This document shows positions 22,722 through 48,616 of a DNA stretch of 60,041 bases, piece after piece. The first letter of the stretch is position 1, and each line of letters begins with the position of its first letter. This stretch comes from a virus. Taxonomy: Duplodnaviria; Caudoviricetes. The stretch covers positions 1 to 60,041 of IMG/VR virus record IMGVR_UViG_3300033155_000947, one strand, 5' to 3'. A program made the position numbers and the translations under genes. The notes below the pieces were generated by a model. The model did not search any database. It was not told the origin of the DNA and saw only the letters and a program-made list of their open reading frames with translations.

Positions 22722-24122
22722 ATGGCCGACGCTGACAAAACATACTTGAAAGACGTGGGTAAGACACTACTAACCGCCAGCGGTAAGCTGTGTGTGGGCG
22801 ACGATTGTTGCGCGTCTGTCGAGTACTGTGGTACGCTCGGTCCTACCCCCGCATGTGGAGCTTATGAGGGCTTTGACATATACCTCACAGCCTGCTCAGT
22901 CAGCGGAACACCGTCCGACTGGGTAGGCACGGGCACGCATCGCGGAACGCCCGCACAGTGGACTGCGGAGTTTTGCGGTGACCCATTTAACCATCCGAAC
23001 GGGTGGCGCTACGTCCATTTAAATGGCGAGTGTTTTGTTTATGTCGGCGCAGACGGCGGTATTGCACACTGGCCTTGGGACGACGGTGGTGGTTGTCAAC
23101 ACACGTCCGACCCTGACTACCAAGATGAGATACCGATTGTTGGCCCTATTACGTTTTTCTGGGACTGCGAATGTTCGGACTTTTACCAGTTACAAGACTG
23201 CACCGACTTGTTCTCTTTCATAACGGTCTACGAGAACGAATGGATAGCCTTGCACGGAGCGGCGACCATAGGGCAGGTGTTCAAAGAAGACGGAGGGACA
23301 GCCTGTTGGAAGTTAACCGCCATCACCAAGGCGCCTATCGTGTTTACCATAGGCCGTAAGCCTACGAAAGACGCAGACTTCTTCGCGGTTCCTGCTTTCG
23401 TAGACTGTGACCTCTGCCTCGGAAACGTCATACACCTAAGGGACTGTGAGACGGGATTGGTTCACCACTACATACCCGCAGACGATTGGGTAGGTGCGCA
23501 CGCGGTACTCCCTACGGTGGGCGAAGCGTGGGAACGCTGGGCAGACGGTCTCTGCTACGAGATCATAGCCGTGGACGACCCGTTCCAAAACCCTACAATC
23601 ACGGCAAACAGTAATGACGAACAGTTCGACAGTTGTGCCTTGTGTGCGGACTATAAGATTAAATTCACGGACTGTGCGACCGGCTTAATAGACAAGTACG
23701 TGCACATGGATGAGTGGCTAAACTATAAACCAAGCGCGCCGAGTATCGGAGACGTCTGGCTGTACAACGAATCCGGGGACGTTGCGTGCTTCGAAGTTAC
23801 GAGCGTGACCGAGCCTGCGATCATAGGCGGTAGCGCAGACGCCTACAACTTCGAAGGAGAGTTCGCAGACTGTAACACCTGCAATAATCAGATGATTAAG
23901 ACGGTGGACTGTGCGACAGGTACGATCTTCCACTACATTCTACGGTCTGAGTGGCTATACTATCACGGGGCGTTGCCTACGGTCGGCACCGCGTGGCTTG
24001 TGGACGGTACGGACTGCTTTGAAGTCTTGTCGATCACACACCCCTTGCAGGCTCCTAACCACGACAGTGACTATTACAGCGTGGAGTATGCTAACTGTAC
24101 CGACTGCGAGGATGCGTTATGA
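22722..24122 (+). CDS. acidic Cys-rich protein with four ~75-aa repeats; possible virion fibre/adhesin
   Basis: Four repeats DC.(T)G...W...T/S(I/V)G...C(F/Y/W)...CxxC. Confidence 0.75.
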   Translation: MADADKTYLKDVGKTLLTASGKLCVGDDCCASVEYCGTLGPTPACGAYEGFDIYLTACSVSGTPSDWVGTGTHRGTPAQWTAEFCGDPFNHPNGWRYVHLNGECFVYVGADGGIAHWPWDDGGGCQHTSDPDYQDEIPIVGPITFFWDCECSDFYQLQDCTDLFSFITVYENEWIALHGAATIGQVFKEDGGTACWKLTAITKAPIVFTIGRKPTKDADFFAVPAFVDCDLCLGNVIHLRDCETGLVHHYIPADDWVGAHAVLPTVGEAWERWADGLCYEIIAVDDPFQNPTITANSNDEQFDSCALCADYKIKFTDCATGLIDKYVHMDEWLNYKPSAPSIGDVWLYNESGDVACFEVTSVTEPAIIGGSADAYNFEGEFADCNTCNNQMIKTVDCATGTIFHYILRSEWLYYHGALPTVGTAWLVDGTDCFEVLSITHPLQAPNHDSDYYSVEYANCTDCEDAL

Positions 24123-26131
24123 TGAAACACTGCTTTAACATATTCTGCCACAAAGGTGACGTCACGGTCGCCAAAGAGTGTAAACGCTTAATCCTCGAGG
24201 TTATGGGTGAGGTGCCCGTATACATTGTCGGTGACGACGACGGAGGCGAAGGCTACGACATGACCAGCACCTTTGACAGGGGTGGGAACCTGTCAAGCAA
24301 AGAAGCATGCCTCGGGCTCTTACAAACCTGCATAGAGAACGGACTACGCACACAGGCCGACTTCTTGTGGAAGGTCGATCCCGACACCGCGCTATTGAAT
24401 GACACACTAATCGCCAAGGTCGAGGCTATAGGAGCAGAGACAGCAGGATATATCGGGCACCCTTCCCGTGGCGGTCACGTTGACTACGAGAAGGCGACGT
24501 TTGGTTGCATGCAGGGCTGGACACCGTCTTGCGCGAAAGATCTGTGGCACTTTATGGACGCAATGTCTATGAGAATCCACATGTTCGGAGACGTGGAAAT
24601 GAGCGGGATCTGCAACGGTATGAAAAAGAAGGGCGCGTACCTACCGAGTGGCAAGGGCGAACACGCGCTGACGTTCAGTGGCGGAGGCTTCCCGGCACAC
24701 GCATATACCCAGCACGGGTACAGCGCAGTGAACACAGGTAACCCGCCCACAACCACCAAAGCACAGCTGAAACTTATGCGGGCGTTCAAGGGTACACTAC
24801 GCCCCGCCGTTCGTACCCAAGTGAACGGTATAAATAACAGGGTGATAGGGGCGTACCACTTCGTCCACGTCCCCAAGACAGGCGGTACCTCGATTGAGAA
24901 GGCGGCGGAATTACGTGACACCCCGCTCAGTAAGCGGTACGGTGACCCCCGTTATCACTTCACCGCAGACGCGATTGAACGTACGTTGCCTGTTATGGCT
25001 ACGTACCGTGATCCCATGGACAGACTGTGGTCGCTGTTTAATTACTTCAAGGGGCGGGACGAGACACTAGAGCACTTCCTCGCCCGCCCACGCAAGCGAC
25101 GCGCGTTGTTACCGGTTAAGTATTTCACCCACAGTCACACTACAGGCAAGTGTTTGGTCACCGACTGGCTAGACTTTAATGATCTGCAGGGAAGCCTTGA
25201 CGCCTTAGACGCAGGCATCACAATCCAGCACAACAACCAACGCGGAGAGAAGCTCGAGCGCACAGCAGAGGATGAGCGGTTACTGCGAGAACACTATCCT
25301 ACGGACTTCACACCCCGCGACGCTGATATAGATGTCAAAGACATAAGCCGTAACCGCAAACGTGACCTGTCGAGGGTGCGCAGGCGCGACAAGATCCGAA
25401 TGGTCGACAACAGGTACCAGTTTATTCACATCCCCAAGACAGGTGGTACCTCCATAGGCAGGCAGTACGGGATCCGGCGCAAGCACATGACTGCGGATCG
25501 CATCACAAGCGACCTCCCGTTCTTCGCGGTCTACCGTGACCCCATGGAACGGCTGTGGTCGGTGGTGCGATTCTTCAAACCAGCGTCCGAGACGGTTGAG
25601 GAGTTCATCACAGGTGAGAAGGCGCTTGTCTACCTCCGACCTGCCAAGCACTTCACCCACAGTCACACTACAGGCAAATGTCTGATCAACCATTGGATTG
25701 ACTTTAATGACATCAACGCAGGGCTGGCAGAGCTAGGCCTCGAACCGGTGGAGCACCACAACAAGGCGCGGAAACACAGACTGAAACGCACACCCGAATA
25801 TGAGCGGTTACTGCAAGAACACTACCCTACGGACTTCCTACCGCGTGACGCGGACGTCGACCCCAAGGACATCGCGTTTGGAGCGCGACACACCACCCTC
25901 ACCCTCGCCATCAACCCTGAGACTATCCGTGTATGTGAAGCCAACCTCGAAATCTGCAAGGTATGTGCTCACTACGACGGGCGACCTCAGATCCGAGAGT
26001 CCCGTAACAAGTTCCTGATTGCTCGCGTACGATGCAAGAAATCAGGAGCCTGCGGTAAGTGGGTAACGCTGACCGGCAGTGGGTGCGACCTTAACCTGCA
26101 CGCTCCGGCACCTGACGCACGTAAAAAGTAA
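24119..26131 (+). CDS. glycosyltransferase-like domain + two sulfotransferase domains + Cys-rich C-terminus
   Basis: KVDPDT (DxD); twice H(V/I)PKTGGTS (5'-PSB) and YRDPM.RLWS (3'-PB). Confidence 0.85.
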   Translation: MMKHCFNIFCHKGDVTVAKECKRLILEVMGEVPVYIVGDDDGGEGYDMTSTFDRGGNLSSKEACLGLLQTCIENGLRTQADFLWKVDPDTALLNDTLIAKVEAIGAETAGYIGHPSRGGHVDYEKATFGCMQGWTPSCAKDLWHFMDAMSMRIHMFGDVEMSGICNGMKKKGAYLPSGKGEHALTFSGGGFPAHAYTQHGYSAVNTGNPPTTTKAQLKLMRAFKGTLRPAVRTQVNGINNRVIGAYHFVHVPKTGGTSIEKAAELRDTPLSKRYGDPRYHFTADAIERTLPVMATYRDPMDRLWSLFNYFKGRDETLEHFLARPRKRRALLPVKYFTHSHTTGKCLVTDWLDFNDLQGSLDALDAGITIQHNNQRGEKLERTAEDERLLREHYPTDFTPRDADIDVKDISRNRKRDLSRVRRRDKIRMVDNRYQFIHIPKTGGTSIGRQYGIRRKHMTADRITSDLPFFAVYRDPMERLWSVVRFFKPASETVEEFITGEKALVYLRPAKHFTHSHTTGKCLINHWIDFNDINAGLAELGLEPVEHHNKARKHRLKRTPEYERLLQEHYPTDFLPRDADVDPKDIAFGARHTTLTLAINPETIRVCEANLEICKVCAHYDGRPQIRESRNKFLIARVRCKKSGACGKWVTLTGSGCDLNLHAPAPDARKK

Positions 26132-27191: not shown

Positions 27192-30100
27192 ATGACCTTT
27201 ACCGACTTCCAAGCCGACTTCCGTGCCGATACCCTGCAAGTCGAGGTCGCAGAGGCCGATCGTGAGACGTTCTTGCAGTTGTTGGCTGAGTCTAAGCACC
27301 TCGAGCAACAGGGCGTCACTACAGGCAACACCGTACTCGAGGCGTCATACGCACGCCTAGCCACAGCCTCCGTCCACAAGGCGTTCGAGCTGGTTGAGGG
27401 TGCGGAGCTCGATAACACTGACACCGGCAATGACACCGATAACGACGACACCGTACCTGACAAGACGTACGAGGGCTTTAATGCCGAAGTGAGCAACCTG
27501 AACGAAGACATTTTATCCGTATTCAATGCGTCCCTGAAGTGGCAGGACGCCAAGGCTATTGCGCACGGACGCGCTTTTTCTATTAAACAAGTGAAAGAGT
27601 CTGAGCACTACACAGTAACCGTGGACGAACAAGAGACAGGTACACTTTTCCTGACAATCGCAGGCGCGAAAGCCGGATGTGGCCGGTACCTACAGTCGCT
27701 CGAAGAGGCTGGCACGTTAAAGCAAAGTTCGGGTGACAGTTTGTCACATGCTGGCGTACCCTACACCGAAGAGCAGTACCTCGAAGAGGCGAGCAAGCAC
27801 GACAAGCTGATCGACAAAGCGTTCAAAAAGCACGGATACGGACACACTATCAACATGCGCAACCTGAGCAAGGTCTTCCGTGAAGCCGGTGACGCGCTTA
27901 AGGCGGGCAAAGACCTAGACAAGGAAATGCCACAGATCGTCAAGAAATACACCGTAGGTGAGGGCGTCGACGAAGGCAAGACCCCACCGCCCCCTGCCGG
28001 TTACAAACTGTACACAGGCAAGCTCGAACGCAACCAGAAGTACTACATGCTCAACACCGAAGCCCCTGCGCCTAAGTGGCTCCCGATGAGCGCGGCGGGT
28101 AAGCAACGGATCAAGCCCAACACGCTGATCGCGATTGCCGAGACCGCAGACGACACCGACCTAGACGAAGGCGTTACACCTATTATCGGCAAAGGTGTTT
28201 CGAAGGATAAGCTCGCGAATGCTCCGAAGTGGTTACTGCGCGCGACTACGAGAGGCGAGAAGGTTGCGTGGGCTAAAGACGGCAAGACTCTGGTCTGGTT
28301 AAAAGGGTCGTGGCTGTGGGGTGACTGGAAAGACGGTATTTGGGAAGGCGGGCACTGGGGCGGGGGTACGTGGCATCACGGTATATGGAAGTCAGGTACG
28401 TGGCACGGAGGTGAGTGGAATGGGGGTACGTGGATAGGAGGAGTCTGGAAGTATGGAGTATGGGGCGGGGGTACGTGGCATCACGGTATATGGGAAAAGG
28501 GTACGTGGAAAGGCGGGGTATGGAAAGACGGGGTATGGAAAGACGGTACGCGGCCCACACCCTTACGCGAAGACACCGACCTAGACGAAGGTTTCACACC
28601 GCTCGACACCAAATCCTATCCTAAGGGTTCGGTCATCAAATGGACGTCACCTGACGGTACGAAGAGTAAAGGCAAAGCCACCAGCGGTAAACTAATCAAC
28701 GGGACGGTGCTTGTCACCCCCGACGGCAAGCGCGCAAGTGATGCAGTAATCGTCAAGGTCTCGACAATACGCGAAGACACCGACCTAGACAACGACCTAG
28801 ACAGTACGCTGGAGCTATCAGAAGCCTCTGAAGTGTCCGTCCGTAACCTGCCTAAGCCCATGGTGTCAGCCGTCAACAAGATCGGCAAGATCACTACAGC
28901 GTGGTCAGGCATTCACGGCATCATCCTGTCTGTCGCGCTCAAGAGCGAGCGAGTCGATATGAAGGATCTTAAAACGCTCGACCCGCGCTGGGTAGAGTTC
29001 AAAGGCAAAAAAGCGCTGTTCGGCCTAGCCGGTCACGTTGACGAAGGCGTTGACGAAGGCAAGCGCGCTCCCTTTAAGTACCGCACCGACGATGGTAAAG
29101 AGCACGTGGGACGCGCGTACGCAGGCAGACTCCCTAAGAAGGCGATGATTTACGTGGATAGCGAGGGGCTAAAATCAGCACTGTCGCTACCGGACTTCAA
29201 GGCGTATGACGGCAGTTTTGACAAAAGCAAATACCGATCCGCCACCCTCGTAGAAGACACCGACCTAGACCTCGAGGAAGCCTCGTATAAAGTAGGCACG
29301 GAGCTACCTTATACTGCGAAGGCGCTTCGCAAAATATACGCAGACGGCTATGGTGCCTCGGTGATAGGATCAGGGGGAGGCGCGTCGGACACGTTAGAGT
29401 ACGGTCGCGACATGGCGGACGCTACGTTCGTGCGTAAAATACTAGACAGGGACAAGCTGGACACTGTGTTGAAACAATCCGCTTCAGTACTAAAGCACGC
29501 TAATACTGATAAGAAACTCAAAGGGCGTAAGCTCTTGATCGTGATTAAAGCAGTACCTGTCAGCCTCAAAGAGACCGCAGACTATGGCGACACCGACCTA
29601 GACCTCGACGAAGCGGCGCCAAAGCTCACTACGTTATCATTCGGTGACGAAGTGGAGATCAATACGCAGTACAAGCGCGCAGGTAAAAAGCCGGTTATGA
29701 ACGGAGCTCTGTACGACTGGATCGCTAAGAAGTTCGGTAAAGGTAACGGTCTGACGATTACAAACAAAGCCTCCGCACTAAAAAAAGGTAAGGTCGAGAT
29801 CCACAAGAGCGTGGGCGCGTCCTCCACAGTGAAAACGATTACGCTGTACCCGTACGGTAAGTTCCTGTCGTATTACGACAACCAAGGTGGCGGTATGATG
29901 AACAACGGGATTAAGAAGTGGTACGCCCTCCCCGCCAACATGATTGCCGAGAGCGTGGACAGCACGGATCTTGCCAGCATCGAAGAGGCTACTGCGCAAG
30001 CGCTGTCCATCATAGACGCGGACTATGACGCTCCGACCGAGTACATTGACCCCGACCTTGACGAAAAAACGAAAGACCGTTTCCGTATGGAGCGTCGCAC

Positions 30101-32372
30101 ACAAGCAACACTCGACAAACTCTCCCGCAAAATGGGCGGACAGTCTGGTGGCGAGGGTACTACTCCTCCGTACGCCAGCGGATTAGAAGGCAGGCGAAAA
30201 GGCTACGGCATGGTCGCCGCTTACGTGTTTGATGACGAAGACTCTGCGAATAAGTTCGCCAAGTCCGCCAAAGACAAGGTCAGCAAGACCGAGGTAGGCA
30301 AGCCACGCGCCTTTTCGAAAAAATGGTGGGTTGACGTATCTATGCCGTCACCACTCAAAGAGTCGGAGATCGAAGAGCTCGCAACCGAGTTCGACCTCGA
30401 CATTACTGATCTTGACGCAGTCGACCACGACACTACAACCGCGTGGGCGGACAGCGACCTTGATGAGGGTATGTCGAAGTCACAAGCTCAGCAGTTGCTC
30501 AAGGTCTACAGCAAGAACGAAGACCGTAATTACCACACCGAGAACATCGTGTTGCTCGCTAAGGCGTTCTACGGCACCAGCAGTCGCGAATACAAATACG
30601 CGAAGGCTATGCTTGACTATCGGGAAGACAACAAAGAAGGCGCGCAACCTGATAAGGCGATGGATCGTAAGATCAACATGTCGTACTACAAGCTGAAGAC
30701 ACTGGCCGAAGACGCACAGGCGGAGCTAGACGAAGCCTTAGAAACCGCGAACATTATACGCAAACAGCTAGGACAGAAGGCGTTGTTTATGATGGGCGCC
30801 AAGAACCTAGCAGGCGACAAACACTCGCTAAGTTTCCGTATCGGCAAGAACAGCAGTGGCGGTAACCATGTTAAAATCCACCACGGCTCCGACGACCTGT
30901 ACACGGTCACCGTCAGCGCCATCCGCGGAGGCAAGGTAAAGGTTAAGAAGGAGTTTAAGAGCGTATACGCTGATAAACTGCACAAGACCCTGCAAGACGC
31001 GACCGGTATGGCGCTCAGCCTAACCAAGCACTACGAGTCAGACAACAGCCTAGGGGAAGGCTTATCGACAGCCGACAAGCATCAGAAGAAAATCGCAATA
31101 GACACCGTCCGTAACCCTGCAAAAGCCTTGCTCGGCGGACCGTCCGCCAAGGAGGCGGAGACGGTACTACGTACCAAGTTCAAGTACTCCGACAAACAAA
31201 TTCAGAAAATTAAGGAACACACTATGCCCCTAGACACAGACAACCCACTCGACGAAGCCGGATACATGACCCCTGCGATTGATGCGATTTACAAGTCGGT
31301 CAAAGACCTAAAAGGTAAGCAGAAAAGCGACGCGCTTGCTGTTTTAGCCACGGCAGTGTTGGTAGACTATCTCAACAAAAAAGGCGACAAAGCACAAGCC
31401 GAACAAAGCAAGAAGGATTCGGTACGTGCGGTCGCTAAATACACACAGACCTACCTCAAAGAAGGTGCCACCGACAATACCGACACCGGCGCGGATACCA
31501 CCGACACCGACAACACTGACGTCGATGAGGTGAACCCAGCCAAAGGCGGACAGCTGGCGGTTGAAGCGCTTGCGCGCATTGACGACTACGCACGTATCGG
31601 AGACGATCAACACTTCGAAGACGCGCAGACCGCCATCACCCGTTTAGCGCGCATTGGCGAACACGCCACGGGCGTACCACAAGAGCTGTGCAACACTGAA
31701 GAAGGTGTTCCGGTTCACACCGCCAAGGTGATTGACGCCCTGCGCACCCGTCTACAAGGAGTCGGAGAAGAGGTTACCGTCCGTCAGATCCGCGCGCTCC
31801 TATCAGAGCAGTTGGATATGTCCAAGGTACCGCTGGAGCTACTACGCGAAGTCGACAGCGCCTTAGAGTCAGGGTCGTCACTCGAGTTCGAGGCCGCTCT
31901 TGACGCATTGGCAGACCATGAAGGCGTGGCACCAGACGTTATCGAAGGCGTGCGCCGTATGTCCCGTTCTACTGTTATGCAACGTAAGCGCTCCGCACGG
32001 TTGAACGCTAATAACCCCGAGGTTAAGGCGAAAAACCGTGCCCGCCGTAAAGAGCGTAAACGCAACACAGGAATGCGTCAGGCCGAGAAGCGGTACAAGA
32101 AGAAGTACCGCCCACGCCATGAAGCTATTCGCGATGACACGGACTTCGACTTCGAAAGCTGTGTCAGTTTCCTCACCACACCCGAGGACGCGGACTATGT
32201 TGCCGAAATGGCCGACGCCCTTGGACTGGTCGAAACCTACACCATCACCGAGAACGGAATCCACGTTCAGGTCGAGATCTTAGAGGATACATTACGCGTT
32301 ATTGACGCCTATATGGACGCCCCTACGGACGAAGAGGCGGAAAGTATCGTCGCCACCGTGCTAAACGCTTAA
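27192..32372 (+). CDS. modular polyprotein-like internal head protein
   Basis: AGGA RBS; Lys-rich modules separated by EDTDLDE/VDE/LEE linkers; W-x-x-G-x pentapeptide module at about 28300-28550. Confidence 0.8.
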   Translation: MTFTDFQADFRADTLQVEVAEADRETFLQLLAESKHLEQQGVTTGNTVLEASYARLATASVHKAFELVEGAELDNTDTGNDTDNDDTVPDKTYEGFNAEVSNLNEDILSVFNASLKWQDAKAIAHGRAFSIKQVKESEHYTVTVDEQETGTLFLTIAGAKAGCGRYLQSLEEAGTLKQSSGDSLSHAGVPYTEEQYLEEASKHDKLIDKAFKKHGYGHTINMRNLSKVFREAGDALKAGKDLDKEMPQIVKKYTVGEGVDEGKTPPPPAGYKLYTGKLERNQKYYMLNTEAPAPKWLPMSAAGKQRIKPNTLIAIAETADDTDLDEGVTPIIGKGVSKDKLANAPKWLLRATTRGEKVAWAKDGKTLVWLKGSWLWGDWKDGIWEGGHWGGGTWHHGIWKSGTWHGGEWNGGTWIGGVWKYGVWGGGTWHHGIWEKGTWKGGVWKDGVWKDGTRPTPLREDTDLDEGFTPLDTKSYPKGSVIKWTSPDGTKSKGKATSGKLINGTVLVTPDGKRASDAVIVKVSTIREDTDLDNDLDSTLELSEASEVSVRNLPKPMVSAVNKIGKITTAWSGIHGIILSVALKSERVDMKDLKTLDPRWVEFKGKKALFGLAGHVDEGVDEGKRAPFKYRTDDGKEHVGRAYAGRLPKKAMIYVDSEGLKSALSLPDFKAYDGSFDKSKYRSATLVEDTDLDLEEASYKVGTELPYTAKALRKIYADGYGASVIGSGGGASDTLEYGRDMADATFVRKILDRDKLDTVLKQSASVLKHANTDKKLKGRKLLIVIKAVPVSLKETADYGDTDLDLDEAAPKLTTLSFGDEVEINTQYKRAGKKPVMNGALYDWIAKKFGKGNGLTITNKASALKKGKVEIHKSVGASSTVKTITLYPYGKFLSYYDNQGGGMMNNGIKKWYALPANMIAESVDSTDLASIEEATAQALSIIDADYDAPTEYIDPDLDEKTKDRFRMERRTQATLDKLSRKMGGQSGGEGTTPPYASGLEGRRKGYGMVAAYVFDDEDSANKFAKSAKDKVSKTEVGKPRAFSKKWWVDVSMPSPLKESEIEELATEFDLDITDLDAVDHDTTTAWADSDLDEGMSKSQAQQLLKVYSKNEDRNYHTENIVLLAKAFYGTSSREYKYAKAMLDYREDNKEGAQPDKAMDRKINMSYYKLKTLAEDAQAELDEALETANIIRKQLGQKALFMMGAKNLAGDKHSLSFRIGKNSSGGNHVKIHHGSDDLYTVTVSAIRGGKVKVKKEFKSVYADKLHKTLQDATGMALSLTKHYESDNSLGEGLSTADKHQKKIAIDTVRNPAKALLGGPSAKEAETVLRTKFKYSDKQIQKIKEHTMPLDTDNPLDEAGYMTPAIDAIYKSVKDLKGKQKSDALAVLATAVLVDYLNKKGDKAQAEQSKKDSVRAVAKYTQTYLKEGATDNTDTGADTTDTDNTDVDEVNPAKGGQLAVEALARIDDYARIGDDQHFEDAQTAITRLARIGEHATGVPQELCNTEEGVPVHTAKVIDALRTRLQGVGEEVTVRQIRALLSEQLDMSKVPLELLREVDSALESGSSLEFEAALDALADHEGVAPDVIEGVRRMSRSTVMQRKRSARLNANNPEVKAKNRARRKERKRNTGMRQAEKRYKKKYRPRHEAIRDDTDFDFESCVSFLTTPEDADYVAEMADALGLVETYTITENGIHVQVEILEDTLRVIDAYMDAPTDEEAESIVATVLNA
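27724..27749 (-). repeat. intragenic inverted copy of the GTGACA-N3-TGTCAC-CCGAAC element
   Basis: Minus strand reads ATGTGACAAACTGTCACCCGAACTTT. Confidence 0.9.
28152..29603 (+). repeat. dispersed 15-bp linker repeat GACACCGACCTAGAC (DTDLD) x5
   Basis: Exact copies at 28152, 28572, 28776, 29256, 29589. Confidence 0.9.
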
Positions 32373-32446
32373 CAAACACCCTCGAATACGTTACACTACA
32401 TAGTACCTAAGTTACAATCTAAAACCCCCCTTTGCTGGAGCTACCC

Positions 32447-33808
32447 ATGCCTATCTTCTTTGAAAACGACGAGCCCGTCGACTTAACCACCGCCACTGAC
32501 CTGTCAGACACCCTAGTCGACGAAGAAGGCAACGCCACTATCGACACCGAAGTGATGTCTGCATTCATCAACACCGTGGACTTCAACCCCGTGTTCGAAG
32601 ACGAAGACGTGCAGGACTACGTACAGACAGAGCTGTCGTACCTCGTGCCTATGTCGGAAGCTGAAGACGCTCCGTACCTGATCCTCAGCGAAGATGAGCT
32701 CGAAGAAATGTGCAAAGACGGCTCCGGCCACCTAGCAGGTAAACAACTGGGCGCGAAGAACGGTAAAAAGTACCGCAAAGCCGAGTATATGGGTATGAAG
32801 GAAAGCATTGACGAAGAGACAGGCGAGGCCGTCTACGCTGAAGATGACTGCGACCAAGACGAAATCAACTTAGACGATTGGATGTTCGAAGACGAAGCCG
32901 GTACGGATTATGACGACTCTGACCGTATCTATATCATCGAAACCGACGCCATCGCAGGTGACCTTGTCGACGCAGTAATCGACATGGACGACATCACTGA
33001 AATGTTTGCCTACTATTGCGCAACCGAGTTGCCTGCCACTACGTTAGAGGAGCGCGCAGTCTTCGCACAGTTCGCTGATCTTTACGAAGTAGAAGACATC
33101 ACCGAAGACGACCAGCTTGACGAAAAATCACCGTTCAAAAGAGGCGACTTCCGTAAAGGCGCGTTCAAAAACGCCAAGCAAGGTACCAAACTATTCAACG
33201 TACGTGCCCGCATGTTCTCTGCTATGCTGAAAAAAGGGGTGCTCAGGCGCGTGAAGTCCGGCAAAGGCTACAAGGGTGGTACCTACAAGTACAAGGGCGA
33301 CAAAACAGGTACGGCACAAGGTAAAAGCCGTTATGCCCGTATCCGTAAGCGTAACTACCGTCGTGCCTCCGACATCAAGAAAATGGTCGGCTCTGCCCGT
33401 GCCAAGGTTGTGAAAATGATCTACCGTAACCTCGGCAAGAAAATGCCAAAACCATACTCACCGCCAGAATCCCGCCTGAAACGCAAGCGCAAGTCGGCGT
33501 CGAAAGCACTGAAGGGTGGCGACGTAAGCAAGGCATCCGTTAAGAGCATCAAGAAAAACGTGTCTACGGGATCCACCGAGAAGAATGCTGTCAGCAAGAC
33601 GCTCGCCAAGTCTAAGAAGCACGCCGCAGGCGCCAAAGCCAAAGTACGGCTCAAAGCCAAGGACGTGAAGAAGAAGGCGCTCGCAAAGGCCGCTTCTAAG
33701 TCCAAAGCTAAGAAAAAGAAAAAGGTATTACCTGAGTCGCAGTACGAAACCAAAGGCATCGGCATCAACGAAGCCGTGATCTGCGCAGGCGCCATCGCTA
33801 AAATGTAA
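32447..33808 (+). CDS. bipartite acidic / Lys-Arg-rich protein; probable prohead core or DNA-binding internal protein
   Basis: Asp/Glu-rich N-half ends at QLDE; histone-H1-like basic C-half. Confidence 0.8.
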   Translation: MPIFFENDEPVDLTTATDLSDTLVDEEGNATIDTEVMSAFINTVDFNPVFEDEDVQDYVQTELSYLVPMSEAEDAPYLILSEDELEEMCKDGSGHLAGKQLGAKNGKKYRKAEYMGMKESIDEETGEAVYAEDDCDQDEINLDDWMFEDEAGTDYDDSDRIYIIETDAIAGDLVDAVIDMDDITEMFAYYCATELPATTLEERAVFAQFADLYEVEDITEDDQLDEKSPFKRGDFRKGAFKNAKQGTKLFNVRARMFSAMLKKGVLRRVKSGKGYKGGTYKYKGDKTGTAQGKSRYARIRKRNYRRASDIKKMVGSARAKVVKMIYRNLGKKMPKPYSPPESRLKRKRKSASKALKGGDVSKASVKSIKKNVSTGSTEKNAVSKTLAKSKKHAAGAKAKVRLKAKDVKKKALAKAASKSKAKKKKKVLPESQYETKGIGINEAVICAGAIAKM

Positions 33809-34191: not shown

Positions 34192-36294
34192 ATGCTTGTC
34201 TACGATTACGGCACCTACACGCGCAAGGATCTCGCACACATGCTCGTTGTGCCCGACCCGCGCAACATGCACACCCTGCTCGCCCGATCAGTAGGCACTA
34301 CGCAGTGGAATGAGGTTAACCGGATGACCGGCGAAAGCCGTCCTATACAGGCAGACGATGTCCGCCTGCAGAACCTCGACGATGTGGTACAGCGCGCCAC
34401 CGTGGAGCTCAACAAGTCCAGCACAGGCGTCATCAGCTTCGACCAGCTGGAGAATGTCTCAGAGGACGCCCTGACGCTCGCGTACGCTCACGACATTGAC
34501 CTAGACCCTACAGACACCCGCGCCTTCGAGACACAGCTCATGGAGCTCCTAGGGCAGGCACAGATAGCCGAAGACGATAGGCGCATAGATGAGAGCCCAC
34601 ACGACCCTGCGGCGCTCCGTGCGGTCTTCATAGCCGGAAGTGGTGCCTCGGGTAAAGGCTTCGTAGGTCGACAAATATTCACAGCGCGTGACGGGTTCCA
34701 TACCGTGAACGCGGACACCCACCTTGAACGCCTGCTCAAGAAGAAGGGCATAGCTCCCAAAGATGTAGGCAAGCACTACGGACTGTTCACCAAAGCACGT
34801 GACCTGCGACATGCCGAGCTCGGAGTACGCGCATCCGTCCGTCAGGGCATGGTTATCGACAGCACCGGATGGGATTACCCGCGTATAGCCAACCCTAAGA
34901 AGGCGCTCGAGAACCTAGGGTACGATACGTACATGGTGGTGATTATGACCACGCTCGAAACCGCGCGCAAGCGCAACAAAGACCGTGGAGCGTCCGGAGG
35001 GCGAGAAGTACCCCAATCGTACATCGACGATGCGCACCGAGGGCTCATGGATAACCTAGGGCGGTACATGCGGTTGTTCGGAGCTGGGCGCATATTCATA
35101 ATCGACAACGACGATGATCTCACACCCCGCCAGTTTCAGCAGATCGTAGGAGCGAAGCTCAAACAGATCCGCAAAAAGATTATGAACAAGCCGATCAAGA
35201 ACCCGCTGGGCGTGAAGTGGCTTAAAAACGCGTACGCACAGTCCGCGGACAAGGTCAAGAAGCAACAACGGTACGTTACCCGCTCTGCCGGAGACCAACA
35301 AGACCATACACGCGCCAAGCCTGTGTCGCTGTCGCACTACGTACCGAAGCCCAAGGCCTTCGGAGCATCCCTGTCACAGGCACAGACATCGTACAGCGCC
35401 TCGGCCAATGCGTTCGCAGGCGTGAAGGCGCGTAAACGGGCTAAAGTCTTGCCGGAATCGCAGATAACCGAGGACGATTACCCGAAGGTTACAAAAGACG
35501 ATAAGCGCCACATAGCAGACATGCAGAAGAATCGTCGTATCCCTTCCGTGGCGGACAAGGGTATGGCGATAATCGTACGCTGGGCGGACGGTCGAGGGCT
35601 CTTTGCCGTGCGAAGTAAGAAGGCGGTCGCTGATTGGTATGCGAGCAGTAAGTCGGGCGAGCACCCTGAGATCGTATCCATCAAGTACGGGAAGGCGGAG
35701 CACAAGGGCAAGCCACTACGTGTGAGCGAGTCCGCTAGCCACCTCACAGTCTCGCTGATCAACGGCCTCACCCACACCAGCTACTGCCCTAAGTGCGAAT
35801 CCACAAAGGTAACACACCGTGAACGGCACGCGGACACCTCTATCAGTTACTGGGAGAACCGATGCAACGCCTGTAACCACGCAGGCGAGAGCGCAACATT
35901 CACCAGCGATGCGGTTATGTACGCAGAACCCACCCCCGCAGAGGCGAAGGCTATAGCGCTAGAACAGGCACAGGCAGACGGAGACACCTGCGCACAGATG
36001 GCGTTGGTACTCGGGCTGGATGTCGACGACCTGCGCGTCAAGTGGGACAAGATAACACAGGATTCAGAGCTGTCCGAGAGCGTGACAAACTGTCACCCGA
36101 ACCATAACCATACAAAAGCGTACGAACAAGCGGTGGCACAGGCGGAGCGTTACCGAGCATCACCTCCGTCCTATGGGGAGGTCGCGCAACGGATAAAAGA
36201 CGTACGCGAAGTCAGCAACGAACAAGCGTACGCCTTATCATGGTATTTACACGGACAACAGCTCAGCGCTTCAGACGCGCTCGCCACTCTATAA
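34192..36294 (+). CDS. multidomain protein with Zeta-toxin/AAA_33-like P-loop kinase and Zn ribbon
   Basis: VFIAGSGASGKG, VNAD, MVIDSTG, LGYDTYMV, LETARKRNKDR...REVP; CPKC...CNAC. Confidence 0.8.
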   Translation: MLVYDYGTYTRKDLAHMLVVPDPRNMHTLLARSVGTTQWNEVNRMTGESRPIQADDVRLQNLDDVVQRATVELNKSSTGVISFDQLENVSEDALTLAYAHDIDLDPTDTRAFETQLMELLGQAQIAEDDRRIDESPHDPAALRAVFIAGSGASGKGFVGRQIFTARDGFHTVNADTHLERLLKKKGIAPKDVGKHYGLFTKARDLRHAELGVRASVRQGMVIDSTGWDYPRIANPKKALENLGYDTYMVVIMTTLETARKRNKDRGASGGREVPQSYIDDAHRGLMDNLGRYMRLFGAGRIFIIDNDDDLTPRQFQQIVGAKLKQIRKKIMNKPIKNPLGVKWLKNAYAQSADKVKKQQRYVTRSAGDQQDHTRAKPVSLSHYVPKPKAFGASLSQAQTSYSASANAFAGVKARKRAKVLPESQITEDDYPKVTKDDKRHIADMQKNRRIPSVADKGMAIIVRWADGRGLFAVRSKKAVADWYASSKSGEHPEIVSIKYGKAEHKGKPLRVSESASHLTVSLINGLTHTSYCPKCESTKVTHRERHADTSISYWENRCNACNHAGESATFTSDAVMYAEPTPAEAKAIALEQAQADGDTCAQMALVLGLDVDDLRVKWDKITQDSELSESVTNCHPNHNHTKAYEQAVAQAERYRASPPSYGEVAQRIKDVREVSNEQAYALSWYLHGQQLSASDALATL
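36082..36114 (+). repeat. intragenic copy of the palindromic element
   Basis: GTGACAAACTGTCACCCGAACCATAACCATACA, near-identical to 7095-7127, read in frame as VTNCHPNHNHT. Confidence 0.9.
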
Positions 36295-36323: not shown

Positions 36324-39300
36324 ATGCCATTAGAACCTCTCGACGAAGCCGTCACAATCAACACAGGGGACATACGACAAGCCCGCCATAAGGTTAAGCT
36401 AGCACAGCCCCTATGGTCAGCCGTGTTTGCACTGGCACAAGAGAGTGACGCCCTTACAGAGTACGTGGCGCCCTACCGTGCGTACATCCAAAAAGGCGAG
36501 AAGACCCCCGCATCTGTGATCAACGCCATGCCACCCGCGTTAGGCCTGTTGTTCAAGGTGATGCACGAGGCCGGTGCCGGATACAAACAGATTGTACAGA
36601 ATACCGCTAAACAAGAGCAGGCCGAAGGTTACGGCATGTTGGCGAAGATTAACGACGACCCTGACGCCATCGCAGACAACCAGCAAGTATGGTCGTTCGC
36701 AAGCGACAGCATCCGTGCCCGCTTATTCGACATAGCACGCGGTCGCAACATCGGATCCCGAGCACTACGTGTCCAGCAGACGCGCAAGCGCCTAGCCATA
36801 ATCATCGACGAACTATTCCCGAAAGACATATCACGCTTCAACACCGCGTATAAGACCGCGGTTAAGGGTGATTTCGACAAGCTGGCCTCCGTCTGGGCAG
36901 ACGCAGACCCGCTGTTCGCGAAAGCGATAGCACAGACCGCAGTCGCAGGACAAACTGCAGATACGGCTACCGGTACCGACGCGCCTGATCCTGACCTCGA
37001 GCCTGCGGTCGTTGACAAAGACAGCAGTTTGTCCGCGCCTCCGAAGACCAAGAAGATAGGGAGCGCCTACCCGCAATGGGTTTATGCGATTGCCGACGCC
37101 AATATGGATGATTTCGTACAAGGCGAAGACGATGACGCAGTGAGCGCAGTGGTAACCCCCCTAAACATTCACGATACAGGTGTCGGAGTCTCGCACGAGC
37201 TCTTCGATTTCCCGTTCTACGTGACAACCGGCAAAAAGAAGGTACTCGAAGTACAAGGCGCCGCGTCGGCTATGGTGAGCTTCACTACGCTTACCAACCC
37301 TGACGGAACCACCGAGATCGTACCGTCCCAAACAGACATCGAATTCGCGCTGTTCGATGAGCAGACCGGTAAGTATTACGTCACATCCGACTCGGATCTG
37401 ACCGACGTACTTGCAGGCAGTTACAAGCTCACCGCGCATAAGCCACACACGCAGGTGCCACAGCAGGTTAAGCCGGCGCCCACGTTCGCCAACCCTGAGT
37501 CCCTGCCTGAGCCTGAATACACGCCCCCGTCACACCTAGCCACACGTCCTGAGATCTGGGGAGTGGTGTTATGGCGCACGGGCATCAACCAGCTCGTGTT
37601 CCGTACGTACGACAACTCGACCTACAGTGATAGCACGCTGTCCCAAGGCGCCACATGGAAAGAACTGACGCAGGACGCCCACTACGGAATCTATCTGCCG
37701 TTGGTGAACAAGGAGATAAAGCTGACGCATCTGACACGCAAACAGATGCACAGCAACCTCGCGAACCCTGTGCCTGCGGTTGCGAACGTCCCTACAATCA
37801 TTGACAGGTCGAACCCCTTTACCACACCAGCACCCGCCATGCGGGTACGCCCAGACGGCACGAAAATGTACCTGATAGCCGTCCTCCCGCTTCCGCAAGG
37901 GGATCGGTACGTGTATGCGCGGGCGATTTATACCGCGATAGAGTCCGCACACTTCAGTAAACTGCACAAAGCGTTCCAGCCCTCGGACGCTTCCGAAGAC
38001 AGTAACATCGCTAATATACCTGAGCCCGAGTTTGAAGACTTCGCACACCTAGCGACCTCCGATTACCTGCAGAGCGTGGTTACATGGGGCAGTCCGATAG
38101 GAGGCGTACCCACACTACGCTACACGGTATACAGCCAAGACGCTTCGGCTAGCCTCTCCCTGTCCTACAACGAGACATGGTCGGAGCTCCTGCACAGCCC
38201 TAACCATCTACCGTACCTCGCACAGGTCAACAAAGTCAGGACGTTGACGAACCCGACACACCCTGCACTGCGTATCTGGTTAGGGACGGAAGGCTTTAAA
38301 GACTTAAGCAAAATGACGCCGGGCGCCGCGGTTAGTAAGATGCTAACAGGGAACGACCTAGCTTCGCTGTTGGATCTTAAGCTGTCTTTGATAGCGCGCA
38401 CCGATACCGAGGATACGCACTACATGTTGGTGGACATTATCAGGAGCTCAACAGGGTCTGCGCGCCACGTATACGCTATGCGTGAAAAGAATAACGACGG
38501 GACGTACGGTAACCTAAGCGTAACCATCACACAACCGAAAGAGGTTGCACAACCGGAGCCGTCAGAGATAGTCCCTGCGTCGCACCCTGACATCCCGCAT
38601 CCGACTGCGATCGGTCGCTGGTTCACAGGCTCCAACAAGGCCTCCGCAGGCGACAAGATTTCCGTCTATCTGGTAAAAGAGGGCAAGGACTTCGACTACG
38701 CTACGGAGGATGCGCACACCCTCCACCAGACTGCAACCGTAATAGACGCGCCCGCAGGTAAGACCCTGTCGATAACAAGGCACGGAAAGATCACCGAACA
38801 GGTTATCACATTCTCACAGCTACTAACCTTAGGGGTTCAGTACACCAAGGACGTGATGAGCGCAGAAGAGAAGAAGAAGTCGGATCAGGCTGTGAGCCAC
38901 GAGAACAAACACGCGCTATTCGCAGGCGCGGGCATGAACAACGTAACGGCAGTAACCGGTCACATGCTGTCCGCGAAGACACACACCACTGCACCCGGAG
39001 CCTACGCCACGACAACAGATATAAACGCCCTGAAAGCAGGTAAGGACGTACCCGATACTGTGCTCCTCTACTACATCACACCGCACTCATGGGTGAATGA
39101 ACTAGGGTACAGCATACCGCATGTGATCCTATACCGTGGCACCATACAGCTAGACGACGCAGGAGCGATCGTCGCAGAGTTGATGGAATCAGCGGAGTCA
39201 CCGTCCAGCGATATACACATGGTAACCAAGTCGGTAGACTCGGGAGCGGTCTTGCCTGTCACCCTTGCTAAATCGTCTCCGCTTATGCCCCCTGTATCTG

Positions 39301-45069: not shown

Positions 45070-45465
45070 ATGAAAAAACGCGCTAAACAATCCAATCCGC
45101 AAGCACAGGCACCCCTGCCCGTTCGAGCCATTGGGACGTTCCTAGTACTAGCGCGCGACAAAGAGCTAGCCCACTACGGTGAGGATTTCGCGGATTATAT
45201 ACTCCACATGGAGTCTGAAACGAACCCCAACGTACAGAACAGCTACAACTTAGGCAACGACGCCCCCACGGTCGCCCGTATCTTGCGAAGGTACACACCT
45301 GACCAGTATGTCGCAGAAATGATTGTAGACATTGCTACATCCTTCGGCGCCTCCCAGTATGTGTACCACGACGACCGTATCATCCCCTTAAAAGCCCCCA
45401 CAAAGGACGTTCACGATGCCCTTAGACCCCAACAAAAATGGACAAACCCACGCATCAGTGGATGA
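45070..45465 (+). CDS. hypothetical protein
   Basis: ORF between structural genes. Confidence 0.6.
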   Translation: MKKRAKQSNPQAQAPLPVRAIGTFLVLARDKELAHYGEDFADYILHMESETNPNVQNSYNLGNDAPTVARILRRYTPDQYVAEMIVDIATSFGASQYVYHDDRIIPLKAPTKDVHDALRPQQKWTNPRISG

Positions 45466-46966
45466 GTCGGTACTACTCACAGAGAGCGCAGTCGAGGACA
45501 TCGAAATTGCGTACGTACGCCAAGGCGACCGCGCGTATGTGGCGTTAGGCGACGTAAGCGCCTCCGACATCGGAGAAGGTGTCGAGTTGGTTGAGAACAT
45601 TACCGACCTAGACACGACTGAGGTTATGGTTGAGGGTGTTGACGGTAAGCGTCCGATGAACTTTGTGAAAGACGGTACGTGGGTTGTAGAAGGCATCTTC
45701 CAGCGCGCGGACACTGTGAACGTGAATAAGCGTAAATACTCTCGTAAGCTATGGGAACGGGTTCTGTCAGAAGACGGACCTACCATGCGCAATATCCGTG
45801 AGCGGTCTATGATCGGTCAGGTTGAACACCCCGCGGACGGTCGCAGTAACCTTAAGCTCGCCGCTTTGTTGGTAACAAGTAACAAACTACGTGAGGACGG
45901 TATTGTATGGGGTACTGCCGAACTGCTCAACACGCCGGACGGTATGCTCTTGCAAGCGCTGTCTGAGGCTAAGATCAAGTGGGGCATTTCCAGCCGTGGG
46001 CGCGGACGCGTTGACGGAGAGGGCAATGTCGACGAAGAACGGTTCACCCTCGGTACCTACGACGCAGTGTCGTCACCCAGCACGCCCGGAGCCTTCCCAT
46101 CGGCCAAGCGTGTGAAGAGTGCCAGCCGTGCCAAGGGTACGAACGAATCGGTAACCCTGCCCGACGTTCCCGACTTCGAAGGCCTAAGCGAAGACGACCA
46201 AATCGACCTAGCGCGTGACTTCCTCCGTCAGTTTGCCACGGCAACAGGAGAGACTGAAGTGGCGGATACGCTGGACGGTGTATGGAAAGCGGCACTACGT
46301 GTGCCGTCTGTGTCTGAAGGCGATGACAACTCTGCAGACCTACTCGTGGTTAACGACAATCTCCGTGTGGCGAATCGCCAACTGGTTGCCGAACTCGCAG
46401 AGCGGAAGAACGCCACCCCTACCGTCAACGAAAACACAGACAACCCCGATAACACCGACACAGGCGCGGATAACACCGACACCGACAATTTCCTAGACGA
46501 TGGCGCGCTTGATGACGCGGTACGTCAGAACCTACAATTACAAGAACGAATCGAAGCGATCCAAACAGAGTTAGGCGAGACGCAACAAGCTCTCGATGAG
46601 TCTGTGGCTTCGTCAACACAGCTGACAAGTTTGCAGTTAAAGGTTGACGAAACCCGCGCGGAGTACGATGACCTCGTGACGCTCTATGTTGAGCACCGCG
46701 ATCAAGTCGTCGCATACTTGCTTGAGCACGTACCAGCACTACAGAGTGATCCCGAGGCTCTCGGGGATGTGGATAACATCCAATCACTCTTGCAGTTGGC
46801 AGTACAGGCGAAGCGAGTCGCAGTTACTGAAGCGGATAACAGTACTGCACGTATGCCCGATAACAGCACCAAGCCGTCATTAAACCTCGGAAAACGATGC
46901 TTAAATGATGTTGAGGCACCTATCGGAGCACGTCAGGCCGCCGACGCCATTCGTCGTGCGCTCTAA
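45416..46966 (+). CDS. prohead core protease (T4 gp21-like) fused to an acidic coiled-coil scaffold
   Basis: GIFQRAD..N.NKRKY, GQVEHP, LNTPDG, GISSRGRG, YDAVSSPS; alternative start GTG 45458. Confidence 0.92.
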   Translation: MPLDPNKNGQTHASVDESVLLTESAVEDIEIAYVRQGDRAYVALGDVSASDIGEGVELVENITDLDTTEVMVEGVDGKRPMNFVKDGTWVVEGIFQRADTVNVNKRKYSRKLWERVLSEDGPTMRNIRERSMIGQVEHPADGRSNLKLAALLVTSNKLREDGIVWGTAELLNTPDGMLLQALSEAKIKWGISSRGRGRVDGEGNVDEERFTLGTYDAVSSPSTPGAFPSAKRVKSASRAKGTNESVTLPDVPDFEGLSEDDQIDLARDFLRQFATATGETEVADTLDGVWKAALRVPSVSEGDDNSADLLVVNDNLRVANRQLVAELAERKNATPTVNENTDNPDNTDTGADNTDTDNFLDDGALDDAVRQNLQLQERIEAIQTELGETQQALDESVASSTQLTSLQLKVDETRAEYDDLVTLYVEHRDQVVAYLLEHVPALQSDPEALGDVDNIQSLLQLAVQAKRVAVTEADNSTARMPDNSTKPSLNLGKRCLNDVEAPIGARQAADAIRRAL

Positions 46967-47013: not shown

Positions 47014-48528
47014 ATGTTAATTAATCGTAAAATGTCATCACGCCGATCTTGGATCGAAGAAGGCCTCGAACTCGCAGACGTAAGTGTCGAAGAGGGCGGT
47101 TGGTCTGAGTACTTCGATGCCGAAGTCGACGAAGCTCTCGAAATTAAAGACGACATGACTCGCGCCGCAACTGCGATCGTCCTCGAAAACACAAAACACT
47201 GGTTAGCCAGCAAGGTACGCGGTAAGCGCGACAGCGATGGCAATATCCATATCGACGAAACAACTGCCTCGGGTTCTGTTGGTGGCTTCACCGACTACTT
47301 GTTCCCGATCGTACGCGCCGCGATGCCAAGCAACCCGCTCAATCAGATCGTATCGGTTCAGCCGACCAGCCGTAAGATTGCTACCGTAACCTACTTTGAG
47401 TGGATTTACGGATCCACCAAAGGTAATGTCACCAAAGGCCAACGCCTGTTCGGTGCCAACACAGGTAAGCCTGACAACGGTCGTAACTACAGTGGTGAGC
47501 TCATCGAAGGTGAGTCTATCGCAGTAAGCTCGGGCGCCTCAACCGGTGGTACCCTTCAATGGGTATCAGGCGGTGGCGTACGTCCTGCAACTGTTAGGTT
47601 CGCAGTAACCACCAGTGTCGGTGCTTCAACTATCGGTGACGATGGTCGTGGTAACCTCACAATCACACGTGACGACACAGGCGCCGCGATTGTCGTAGGT
47701 GCGACATCCATCAACTACATCACAGGTGGTTTCTCTATCACCTTGGCAGGACCGGAGACCTTCTCAGCAGGTACCGGCACGGCCACCTACGGTTGGAACA
47801 GTGAAGGCGGTATCCTACCTGAAGTGGACATCAACATCACCACCAGCAGTGTCGACACCGTCCGTCGTGCCCTGCGCATGAACCATACAAGTGAAGCATC
47901 GTTCGACCTTCAGCAAGAGTATGGCACGTCGCTCGACCAAGCGCTTATCAAAGGCGCCGCAGAGCTTCTCAACTTCGAACAGTTCCAGCAGGTACTACGC
48001 GAAATCTGGGCAGTTACCCCGGTAACAAGCACATGGGATCAAACCCCTGCGTCTGGCATCAGCCGTCGTGATCACTTCGAAGGTCTGTTGTACAACCTCA
48101 ACCAAGCCAGCAACAGCATCTGGCGTCGCACCCAAAAGGCTTACGCCAACTGGGCGGTGGTTGACGAAGGCGCCGCGAACATCTTGGAGTCACTACCTGA
48201 CACCCTGTTCAAAAGCGTTCCCGCGCCTAAGAACGTCATGGGCGCTCACCACATCGGTACCATCAAAGGCAAGATCAAGGTGTACAAGTACATCCACCTT
48301 GCCCAAGAGCCGGGTGCTGTGGCAGGCGGTAACATGATCATGGGCTATAAAGGCTCTGAATTCTGGGAAGCTGGCATGGTATGGTCACCTTACCAACTCA
48401 TGTACACGACTGACCCGTTGACAACTGCGGACTTCGTTACCCAACGTGGCGTGGCAACCCGCTACGCGACAAAACTGGTTAATCCGCATATGTTCGCTCG
48501 CGTGAATTTTACTGGCGCAGTCGTATAA
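47014..48528 (+). CDS. major capsid protein (T4 gp23-like)
   Basis: TAIVLEN, FPIVR, IVSVQP, RRALR, GYKGSEFWEAGMVWSPY, RGVATRYA; follows the protease. Confidence 0.95.
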   Translation: MLINRKMSSRRSWIEEGLELADVSVEEGGWSEYFDAEVDEALEIKDDMTRAATAIVLENTKHWLASKVRGKRDSDGNIHIDETTASGSVGGFTDYLFPIVRAAMPSNPLNQIVSVQPTSRKIATVTYFEWIYGSTKGNVTKGQRLFGANTGKPDNGRNYSGELIEGESIAVSSGASTGGTLQWVSGGGVRPATVRFAVTTSVGASTIGDDGRGNLTITRDDTGAAIVVGATSINYITGGFSITLAGPETFSAGTGTATYGWNSEGGILPEVDINITTSSVDTVRRALRMNHTSEASFDLQQEYGTSLDQALIKGAAELLNFEQFQQVLREIWAVTPVTSTWDQTPASGISRRDHFEGLLYNLNQASNSIWRRTQKAYANWAVVDEGAANILESLPDTLFKSVPAPKNVMGAHHIGTIKGKIKVYKYIHLAQEPGAVAGGNMIMGYKGSEFWEAGMVWSPYQLMYTTDPLTTADFVTQRGVATRYATKLVNPHMFARVNFTGAVV

Positions 48529-48580: not shown

Positions 48581-48609
48581 TTGACAATACGAGGCGTTAC
48601 GTGTATAGT
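48581..48609 (+). promoter_or_regulatory. sigma70-type promoter of the HNH gene
   Basis: TTGACA-N17-TATAGT. Confidence 0.75.
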
Positions 48610-48616
48610 GATGTTC

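Follow-up and report, generated by a model that had tools for sequence, protein, structure and literature searches.

A putative head-packaged polyprotein of basic modules and acidic, prohead-protease-like spacers in a phage genome fragment

Introduction

The T4 prohead protease, gp21, cleaves its substrates after the Glu residue of the motif Leu/Ile-x-Glu. Core proteins and propeptides of T4 are cleaved and then leave the head, as stated in PMC5694885 and PMC7411985, and the lysine residues of the T4 internal proteins contact DNA phosphates, according to PMC3012670. In phage SPN3US the prohead protease cuts after A-x-E, a specificity termed 'reminiscent' of gp21 in PMC7411985 and PMC10052503; the SPN3US propeptides given in the latter span 111-254 residues and are cut at several A-x-E sites. 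Polyvalent proteins, for their part, have been likened to RNA-virus polyproteins in PMC5512222. Here, we describe an open reading frame (ORF) from the IMG/VR virus record IMGVR_UViG_3300033155_000947 (Caudoviricetes), an uncultured phage with a T4-like capsid, that appears to encode a polyprotein of 13 small basic modules separated by acidic spacers, and analyse how far its sequence resembles that of a prohead-protease substrate. The whole of this linear record (60,041 bases, 55% G+C, 34% complete according to CheckV) was analysed and is termed the window throughout.

Results

Organisation of the polyprotein

The polyprotein ORF is open from a TTG at 27153, with the likely start being the ATG at 27192, which has an AGGA 8 nt upstream. 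The regions of the gene are as follows (module ends refer to the last three residues of the module):

27192..32372, + strand: polyprotein ORF, 1726 residues in an uninterrupted frame, stop codon included in the coordinates
27192..27788, + strand: acidic N-terminal region, residues 1-199, net charge about -22, containing the stretch DNTDTGNDTDNDD
27789..27974, + strand: module 1 (200-257) and GVDE joint (258-261)
27975..28169, + strand: module 2 (262-317, end IAE) and spacer TADDTDLDE (318-326)
28170..28589, + strand: module 3 (327-460, end LRE) and spacer DTDLDE (461-466)
28590..28823, + strand: module 4 (467-528, end IRE) and spacer DTDLDNDLDSTLELSE (529-544)
28824..29057, + strand: module 5 (545-618) and GVDE joint (619-622)
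29058..29279, + strand: module 6 (623-688, end LVE) and spacer DTDLDLEE (689-696)
29280..29612, + strand: module 7 (697-794, end LKE) and spacer TADYGDTDLDLDE (795-807)
29613..30065, + strand: module 8 (808-920, end IAE) and 38-residue spacer (921-958, end DLDE)
30066..30467, + strand: module 9 (959-1057, end LKE) and 35-residue spacer (1058-1092, end DLDE)
30468..30734, + strand: module 10 (1093-1173, end LAE) and spacer DAQAELDE (1174-1181)
30735..31058, + strand: module 11 (1182-1289, end LGE), a member of phrog_9437
31059..31256, + strand: module 12 (1290-1342) and joint HTMPLDTDNPLDE (1343-1355), in which a Met is kept
31257..31529, + strand: module 13 (1356-1424, end LKE) and spacer GATDNTDTGADTTDTDNTDVDE (1425-1446)
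31530..32369, + strand: C-terminal region (1447-1726), acidic over 1447-1590, then Arg/Lys-rich, with an acidic end of 80 residues

Residues 200-1446 thus divide into 13 modules of 53-134 residues and 12 spacers of 4-38 residues. The module residues (n=1071) comprise 14.0% K, 3.9% R and 4.4% E, giving isoelectric points (pI) of 8.3-10.0 for the modules, and the spacer residues (n=176) include neither K nor R, 29% D and 12.5% E, with a pI of about 4.1; in the pI calculation, some of the boundaries were displaced by one residue. No similarity was detected between any two modules in an all-against-all blastp comparison, in which the best match reached E 0.018 over 24 residues. Module 3 is built from an APKWLLRA cap motif followed by about 12 five-residue repeats of the form G-x-W-x-x. 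A preliminary description of this DNA, made from the sequence alone, had portrayed the gene as a series of mutually unrelated Lys-rich, Glu-poor modules alternating with acidic linkers, and in both respects the composition and blastp data bear it out; its count of about 14 modules is retained for 13 of them, the 14th corresponding to the Arg/Lys-rich stretch of the C-terminal region (about residues 1586-1646, pI 11.9).

The two ends of the polyprotein are of a different character. Within the N-terminal region, [LIV]xE sites are found at E21, E33, E50, E69, E172 and E199, and this region is a candidate for a long propeptide or core-binding part. The C-terminal region has no relative in Pfam or PHROG, matched no other ORF of the window below E 0.2 and gave no usable match in the ESM Atlas. 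Two other origins of the modular appearance could be ruled out: separate genes concealed in the polyprotein frame, since the frame holds no stops and the modules start with Gly/Ala rather than Met, and an assembly chimera, since the 15-nt repeats present in the gene (see below) are too short to produce one.

The motif at the spacer ends

A [LIV]-x-Glu motif stands at each module end and again at each spacer end. All 12 spacers close with [LV]-[D/E/S]-Glu, the following residue being Gly or Ala in 10 cases, and 27 of the 30 occurrences of [LIVMF]-x-E within residues 200-1446 are located at module ends or within spacers, leaving three inside modules (E231, E385 and E435). The module boundaries had been set with the motif in view, and therefore the spacer-end test was repeated using spacers redefined by composition alone: the acidic, K/R-free segments obtained in this way end exactly in [LIVMF]xE in 7 of 13 cases compared to 0.87 expected, a number that was reached in none of 5000 shuffles. 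Five of the other six segments contain an internal site, and the last (DDED, 1014-1017) falls inside module 9. The spacer pattern is far beyond chance.

At the DNA level, the 15-nt repeat GACACCGACCTAGAC is present in five exact copies (at 28152, 28572, 28776, 29256 and 29589), with three extra copies showing 1-2 mismatches; the resulting 8 matches compare with 0.25 expected, and none of 100 shuffles reached 8. All five DTDLD peptides are written by the identical 15 nt: given the codon usage of the window, the chance of that spelling is 0.034 per copy, and hence ~1e-6 for four further identical copies. That the five DTDLD spacers use the same codons points to exchange or duplication of the DNA itself. 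The two joints in which GVDE is followed by GK display 82% DNA identity over 28 nt. The preliminary description had already pointed to linkers ending in (L/V/I)-x-E, to modules closing with a similar site and to five linkers sharing an exact DNA repeat, all of which were recovered here.

A further stretch of DNA is common to the polyprotein and the protease gene described below: 35 of 38 nt are the same in spacer 13 of the polyprotein (31476-31513) and in the protease gene (46451-46488, + strand), where they encode NTDTGADTTDTDN and NTDTGADNTDTDN (about residues 346-358 of the protease), respectively. A weaker third copy lies at 27405-27455, in the N-terminal region of the polyprotein. This sharing suggests either exchange between head-core genes or a common functional peptide.

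The prohead protease and the capsid maturation site

The window encodes both a candidate enzyme for the polyprotein and a capsid protein whose own processing site can be compared with the spacers:

45416..46966, + strand: prohead protease (Peptidase_S77) with a C-terminal extension of about 230 residues, the proposed enzyme
47014..48528, + strand: gp23-type major capsid protein, with four [IV]-[DE]-E sites in residues 1-82, including IDE82

The protease matches Peptidase_S77 with E 1e-14, phrog_207 with E 2.5e-32 and the T4 gp21 structure 5jbl with E 3.8e-8 over 171 residues, which confirms the gp21-like protease that had been proposed for this position. For the capsid protein, the N-terminal 130 residues were aligned with six relatives, one of which, at just 15% identity, is possibly not a capsid protein. 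The column of IDE82 reads LDE, LDE, MDE and MTE in four of the six relatives, and the other two, one of them being the 15%-identical sequence, exhibit LYE and LME one column off IDE82. The site lies about 15-20 residues N-terminal of a conserved V-G-x-F...VSVQP block and 4 residues ahead of the segment aligned to residue 20 of mature T4 gp23. IDE82 therefore aligns at the conserved maturation position, which indicates that the phage's own maturation site is shaped like the spacer ends.

Enrichment of the corresponding motif, [LIVF][DE]E, was tested in 36 ORFs of the window, with five ORFs standing out:

Polyprotein, 27192: 17 observed, 4.0 expected
Capsid protein, 47014: 5 observed, 0.7 expected
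ORF 36324: 10 observed, 3.2 expected
ORF 32432: 5 observed, 1.4 expected
Protease, 45416: 4 observed, 1.8 expected

The remaining 31 of the 36 ORFs contain 0-2 occurrences each, and enrichment is thus confined to head-core genes. Taken on these sequence comparisons, the spacers look like prohead-protease sites. This part of the preliminary description, which had called the linkers prohead-protease-type, stands by virtue of their likeness to capsid IDE82 and to the leader of gene 36324 (see below), a comparison made at the level of sequence.

Relatives of the modules and of the whole gene

The whole polyprotein contains no Pfam family at E <= 0.01 and no NCBIfam family, and a search of 15 polyprotein pieces against Pfam at E <= 1 returned no family above the cut-off. 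Comparison of the modules with Pfam, NCBIfam and the PDB likewise gave no family of known function, with the best PDB sequence match being E 0.5; their sole PHROG match is phrog_9437, to which no function is assigned. No full-length relative of the gene was obtained by blastn against cultured phages or by a pattern scan of IMG/VR. Using tblastn against cultured phages, two records were found, both matching module 11, and a word-indexed protein search gave the query itself only for proteins of near length and nothing for shorter lengths over residues 467-1446. HMMER with residues 261-1446 afforded 2548 matches at E <= 0.001: among the best 150 of these, which include 149 sequences other than the query, 147 match module 3 and 2 match module 7, and weaker relatives of other modules may exist beyond these 150. 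A single-sequence fold of residues 261-1446 had a mean predicted local distance difference test (pLDDT) score of 36.2, which is unusable and uninformative on separate domains.

Relatives of module 7, with 43-49% identity, are found in three other architectures. P0101 is a Lys-rich chain of 574 residues with joints in which [VI]NE is followed by S; it has only module 7 in common with the polyprotein of the window, and its first module is a stand-alone gene of 61 residues in the T4-like Vibrio phage Va1. In P0141, the leader MKKSELRQIIKEELQRLEE directly precedes module 7, although this contig of 564 bases may be cut short. P0151 and P0152, which stem from other metagenomes, are proteins of 203 residues each in which two different modules both follow a copy of the same 19-residue leader (MKKSELRQIIREE...), the second copy retaining its Met. 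In all five aligned members of the family, module 7 starts 1-3 residues past [LI]-x-E. A module start right after [LI]-x-E, combined with a kept internal Met, is the trace expected from fusing neighbouring leader-bearing genes; judged on this trace, P0151 and P0152 would represent such a fusion of leader-bearing genes caught in the act, and the Met-bearing joint before module 13 of the polyprotein parallels their internal leader. Scans of IMG/VR and of metagenomes for the genomic context of the module 7 relatives returned nothing. A model of module 7 built from 5 sequences reached a pLDDT of 72.8; it had no PDB match by Foldseek at E <= 0.001, and the best hit of a wide VIA structural search (Z 4.9) was within noise.

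Module 11 matches the phrog_9437 profile with E 1.7e-16 over positions 4-98 of 98. It exists as a stand-alone gene of ~98 residues in Pasteurella phage Pm86 (ORF50) and Tunturiibacter phage Tunturi_5 (gp289), located outside the head genes in both, and in the ESM Atlas it matched only unnamed viral clusters (0.82-0.87). The family of module 3, very large and unnamed, is characterised by a P-x-W-L cap and G-x-W-x-x five-residue repeats, and its members occur alone, after signal peptides (lipoprotein-like) or within larger proteins such as the sheath-like P0012; one relative, P0079, stands after a leader-like sequence in which ...VVLNE is followed by S. The Pfam pentapeptide models gave no family for module 3 at E <= 1, and a strict five-residue G-x-W-x-x period is visible in its sequence. 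These distributions support the view that the modules are independent units, found elsewhere alone or in other combinations. The earlier suggestion of shufflable modules with the linker as a joint is hence sustained to this extent: the modules would be independent units and the identical DTDLD codons argue for exchange or duplication.

Neighbouring genes and genome context

The right half of the window is a myovirus structural block, and the polyprotein gene lies on the same strand as the gene run that finishes in protease, capsid protein, neck and sheath. Further features are:

36324..36347, + strand: leader MPLEPLDE of the 2355-residue protein 36324, followed by Ala, of the same form as the spacer ends
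Right half of the window: HNH endonuclease, neck proteins, sheath (54655), tube and baseplate hub

Several large genes precede the protease and share its strand, namely 27192-32372, 32432 (458 residues), 34192 (700 residues) and 36324 (2355 residues), and the three that follow the polyprotein also carry the site. Gene 36324-43391 (+) contains a NUDIX domain at residues 1175-1243 behind the leader listed above, and its product may enter the head as another substrate of the protease. The joint ahead of module 13 of the polyprotein, in which MPLDTDNPLDE with its Met kept is followed by Ala, aligns at the DNA level with the start of this gene. Gene 34192-36294 (+) encodes a Zeta_toxin/AAA_33 P-loop kinase domain at residues 141-308, with RIDE followed by S at residues 132-135, just N-terminal of the kinase domain; a DIDLD variant of the spacer repeat is found at 34492-34506, also ahead of this domain, and the product could be a kinase whose N-terminal part can be cut off. 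In the product of gene 32432-33808 (+), residues 1-232 are strongly acidic and the rest is extremely Lys/Arg-rich, with QLDE followed by K at the switch, so that the protein looks like an acidic propeptide fused to a histone-like internal protein.

Among cultured phages, the major capsid protein 47014 shows at most 32% identity, with Bacillus phage SP-15 as its best match, and all 771 matching records lie below 60% identity. An HNH/NUMOD4 homing-type endonuclease gene (48581-49555, +) is placed immediately 3' of the capsid gene, and in phage SP-15 an endonuclease gene splits the capsid gene. Neither portal nor terminase was recognised among the window genes in Pfam and PHROG profile scans. Gene 17110 carries a DUF4942 methyltransferase domain.

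Several other traits of the window were recorded. The product of 24119-26131 (+), 670 residues in length, consists of two alike halves with repeated HFTHSHTTGKCL and EHYPTDF...RDAD blocks and has a weak sulfotransferase PHROG match (E 2.6e-7). Tandem repeats of CACCCCCG (at about 790-850) and of CCACTTTACA (2290-2343) lie directly 5' of the thymidylate synthase gene and of the gene at 2344, respectively. Nearly all window genes are on the + strand, on which A is in excess over T in 30 of 30 2-kb bins (AT skew mostly 0.1-0.3, minimum 0.012).

Discussion

Proposed processing of the polyprotein

The data are best accommodated if the polyprotein is cut inside the prohead by the phage's own S77 protease into products resembling the T4 internal proteins, a reading to which we assign a probability of roughly 0.6 (0.62). 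The acidic N- and/or C-terminal regions would draw the precursor into the prohead core, a role comparable to that of the capsid-targeting sequence in T4 and of the long SPN3US propeptides. There, each spacer would be excised by protease cleavage behind the Glu on either side of it. Spacers and acidic end regions, the latter holding further sites, would exit the capsid as small peptides, and 13 proteins of about 6-15 kDa and pI 8.3-10 would remain in equal numbers. These mature modules would sit on the packaged DNA via their lysines and exit with it at infection, as T4 IPI-III do. Before cleavage, the acidic spacers may serve to neutralise the basic modules. The spacer, where recombination or fusion would add or remove modules, would in turn descend from the leaders of once separate genes. 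More tentative, and in our estimation rather doubtful, is an extension of this scheme in which the gene is a library of small injected effectors, reshuffled by recombination and served by one loading signal, forming a changeable anti-defence or host-takeover set delivered in fixed 1:1 amounts; here, the spacer would act at once as protease site, as charge mask (keeping the basic modules harmless or soluble until prohead closure) and as homology patch for module swaps. Searching for a polyprotein in combination with prohead protease, gp21, internal or ejection proteins or jumbo phage yielded no description in the literature, subscription journals and supplements lying outside this search.

Several results weigh against processing in the prohead. 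The specificity of the 45416 protease is deduced from its family together with the motif. The T4-type N-terminal targeting sequence of 10 residues is absent from the polyprotein, and residues 1-199, which would take its place, have no relative in Pfam or PHROG and match no other ORF of the window below E 0.2. There is some circularity in saying that [LIV]xE closes all 13 modules, the exact ends obtained by composition alone amounting to 7 of 13, and avoidance of the site inside modules is borderline (3 module-interior sites compared to 7.1 expected, P = 0.05) and hence weak. Related phages were also sought through the protease, whose single sequence led to 0 loci and an alignment of three sequences to 8. 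Across the catalytic part, the closest two are 38% and 46% identical. Of the 5 protease-related records searched, 0 contain a relative of the polyprotein, and the one complete genome of the closest pair (166 kb) has no comparable ORF in 46 ORFs of at least 300 residues, its protease-scaffold protein being the only motif-rich one. Since these protease relatives do without the polyprotein, the architecture does not belong to the conserved elements of head assembly in this lineage, and on this comparison the gene would be an accessory one rather than a core head gene.

Three rival explanations were weighed, all of which are disfavoured on three grounds: the spacers match the capsid site, motif enrichment is confined to head-core genes, and module 7 has relatives that bear leaders. 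The polyprotein could be an uncleaved beads-on-a-string protein, such as a capsid or neck fibre or a decoration protein, with the acidic spacers separating or stiffening the domains via calcium. Calcium-binding spacers of the form D-x-D-x-D occur in some bacterial adhesins, DTDLD fits this form, and the relatives of module 3 in non-phage settings (lipoprotein-like with signal peptides) and in the sheath-like P0012 would be in keeping with such a role. However, the spacers end exactly in the capsid-maturation motif with Gly/Ala as the next residue in 10 of 12 cases, the modules are mutually unrelated and uniformly basic, and module 7 is found behind removable-looking leaders in other proteins; together with a motif that is enriched only in head-core genes, this makes a fibre unlikely. 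Slightly less probable still is a polyvalent protein (Iyer et al. 2017) that is delivered whole with the DNA and remains uncut, or is cleaved by a different peptidase no earlier than in the host. The polyprotein contains neither a peptidase nor another signature domain (0 Pfam families), and its joints fit the prohead protease motif, not that of an embedded peptidase. What speaks for this option is the presence nearby of Zeta_toxin/AAA_33 (34192), NUDIX (36324) and DUF4942 methyltransferase (17110) domains, three types that are typical of polyvalent proteins. The release of domains by embedded peptidases is proposed in PMC5512222.

The least probable of the three is a non-virion protein in which the acidic spacers are flexible linkers and the motif is a by-product of a composition rich in Asp, Glu and Leu. 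The genes immediately upstream, 24119 and 26185, have no assigned function, and the lack of a recognised portal or terminase in the window can likewise be read in its favour. Yet shuffles of the same composition produce 0.87 motif ends against the 7 observed, with 0 of 5000 reaching 7, and the gene belongs to the same-strand run that ends in protease, capsid protein, neck and sheath.

Should processing by the prohead protease prove true, the genetic economy would differ from that of T4-type phages, which load small basic head proteins from one gene each: a chain of 13 proteins would share one promoter and one loading signal, be supplied in equal copy numbers and readily take up or shed modules at a short common joint. 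A sequence rule for finding head-packaged proteins in uncultured phages would follow as well, namely an acidic K/R-free spacer, [LIV]-x-Glu and then Gly/Ala. The 13 small proteins of unknown fold are candidate factors for condensing DNA or for interacting with the host at an early stage, and the design could be adapted for packing several foreign proteins into phage capsids.

Comparison with known systems

Among the closest described counterparts are T4 IPI, IPII and IPIII (together with Alt), which are alike in being small basic proteins with a hydrophobic-x-Glu site for an S77 prohead protease. The T4 internal proteins are, moreover, a highly variable set sharing only their leader, according to PMC3012670, PMC7411985 and PMC2839356. 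In T4, however, each internal protein is encoded separately and carries a leader of ~10-20 residues, whereas here a single frame links 13 products, with acidic spacers that hold two sites each and an acidic N-terminal region of 199 residues instead of a short leader. A short leader of the T4 kind is present here in gene 36324 (MPLEPLDE before Ala), with a relic at the module 12/13 joint. The polyprotein showed no similarity in sequence to T4 proteins.

T4 gp22, gp67 and gp68 and the ejection-protein propeptides of SPN3US and phiKZ are alike in undergoing several cuts per substrate, with acidic fragments leaving the head, as described in PMC10052503 and PMC5694885; these substrates yield one mature product or waste peptides, whereas 13 different folded products are predicted here. 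Module 11 differs from the cultured-phage members of phrog_9437, which stand alone outside the head module, in that it sits in the chain. Polyvalent proteins, which next to the separate internal-protein genes of T4 come nearest in the literature, also combine 2-15 unrelated domains per polypeptide that are delivered with the DNA and for which release as units has been proposed (PMC5512222). That class is defined there by enzymatic effectors and embedded MPTase or papain-like peptidases; the polyprotein exhibits neither, and its joints instead fit a separate prohead protease.

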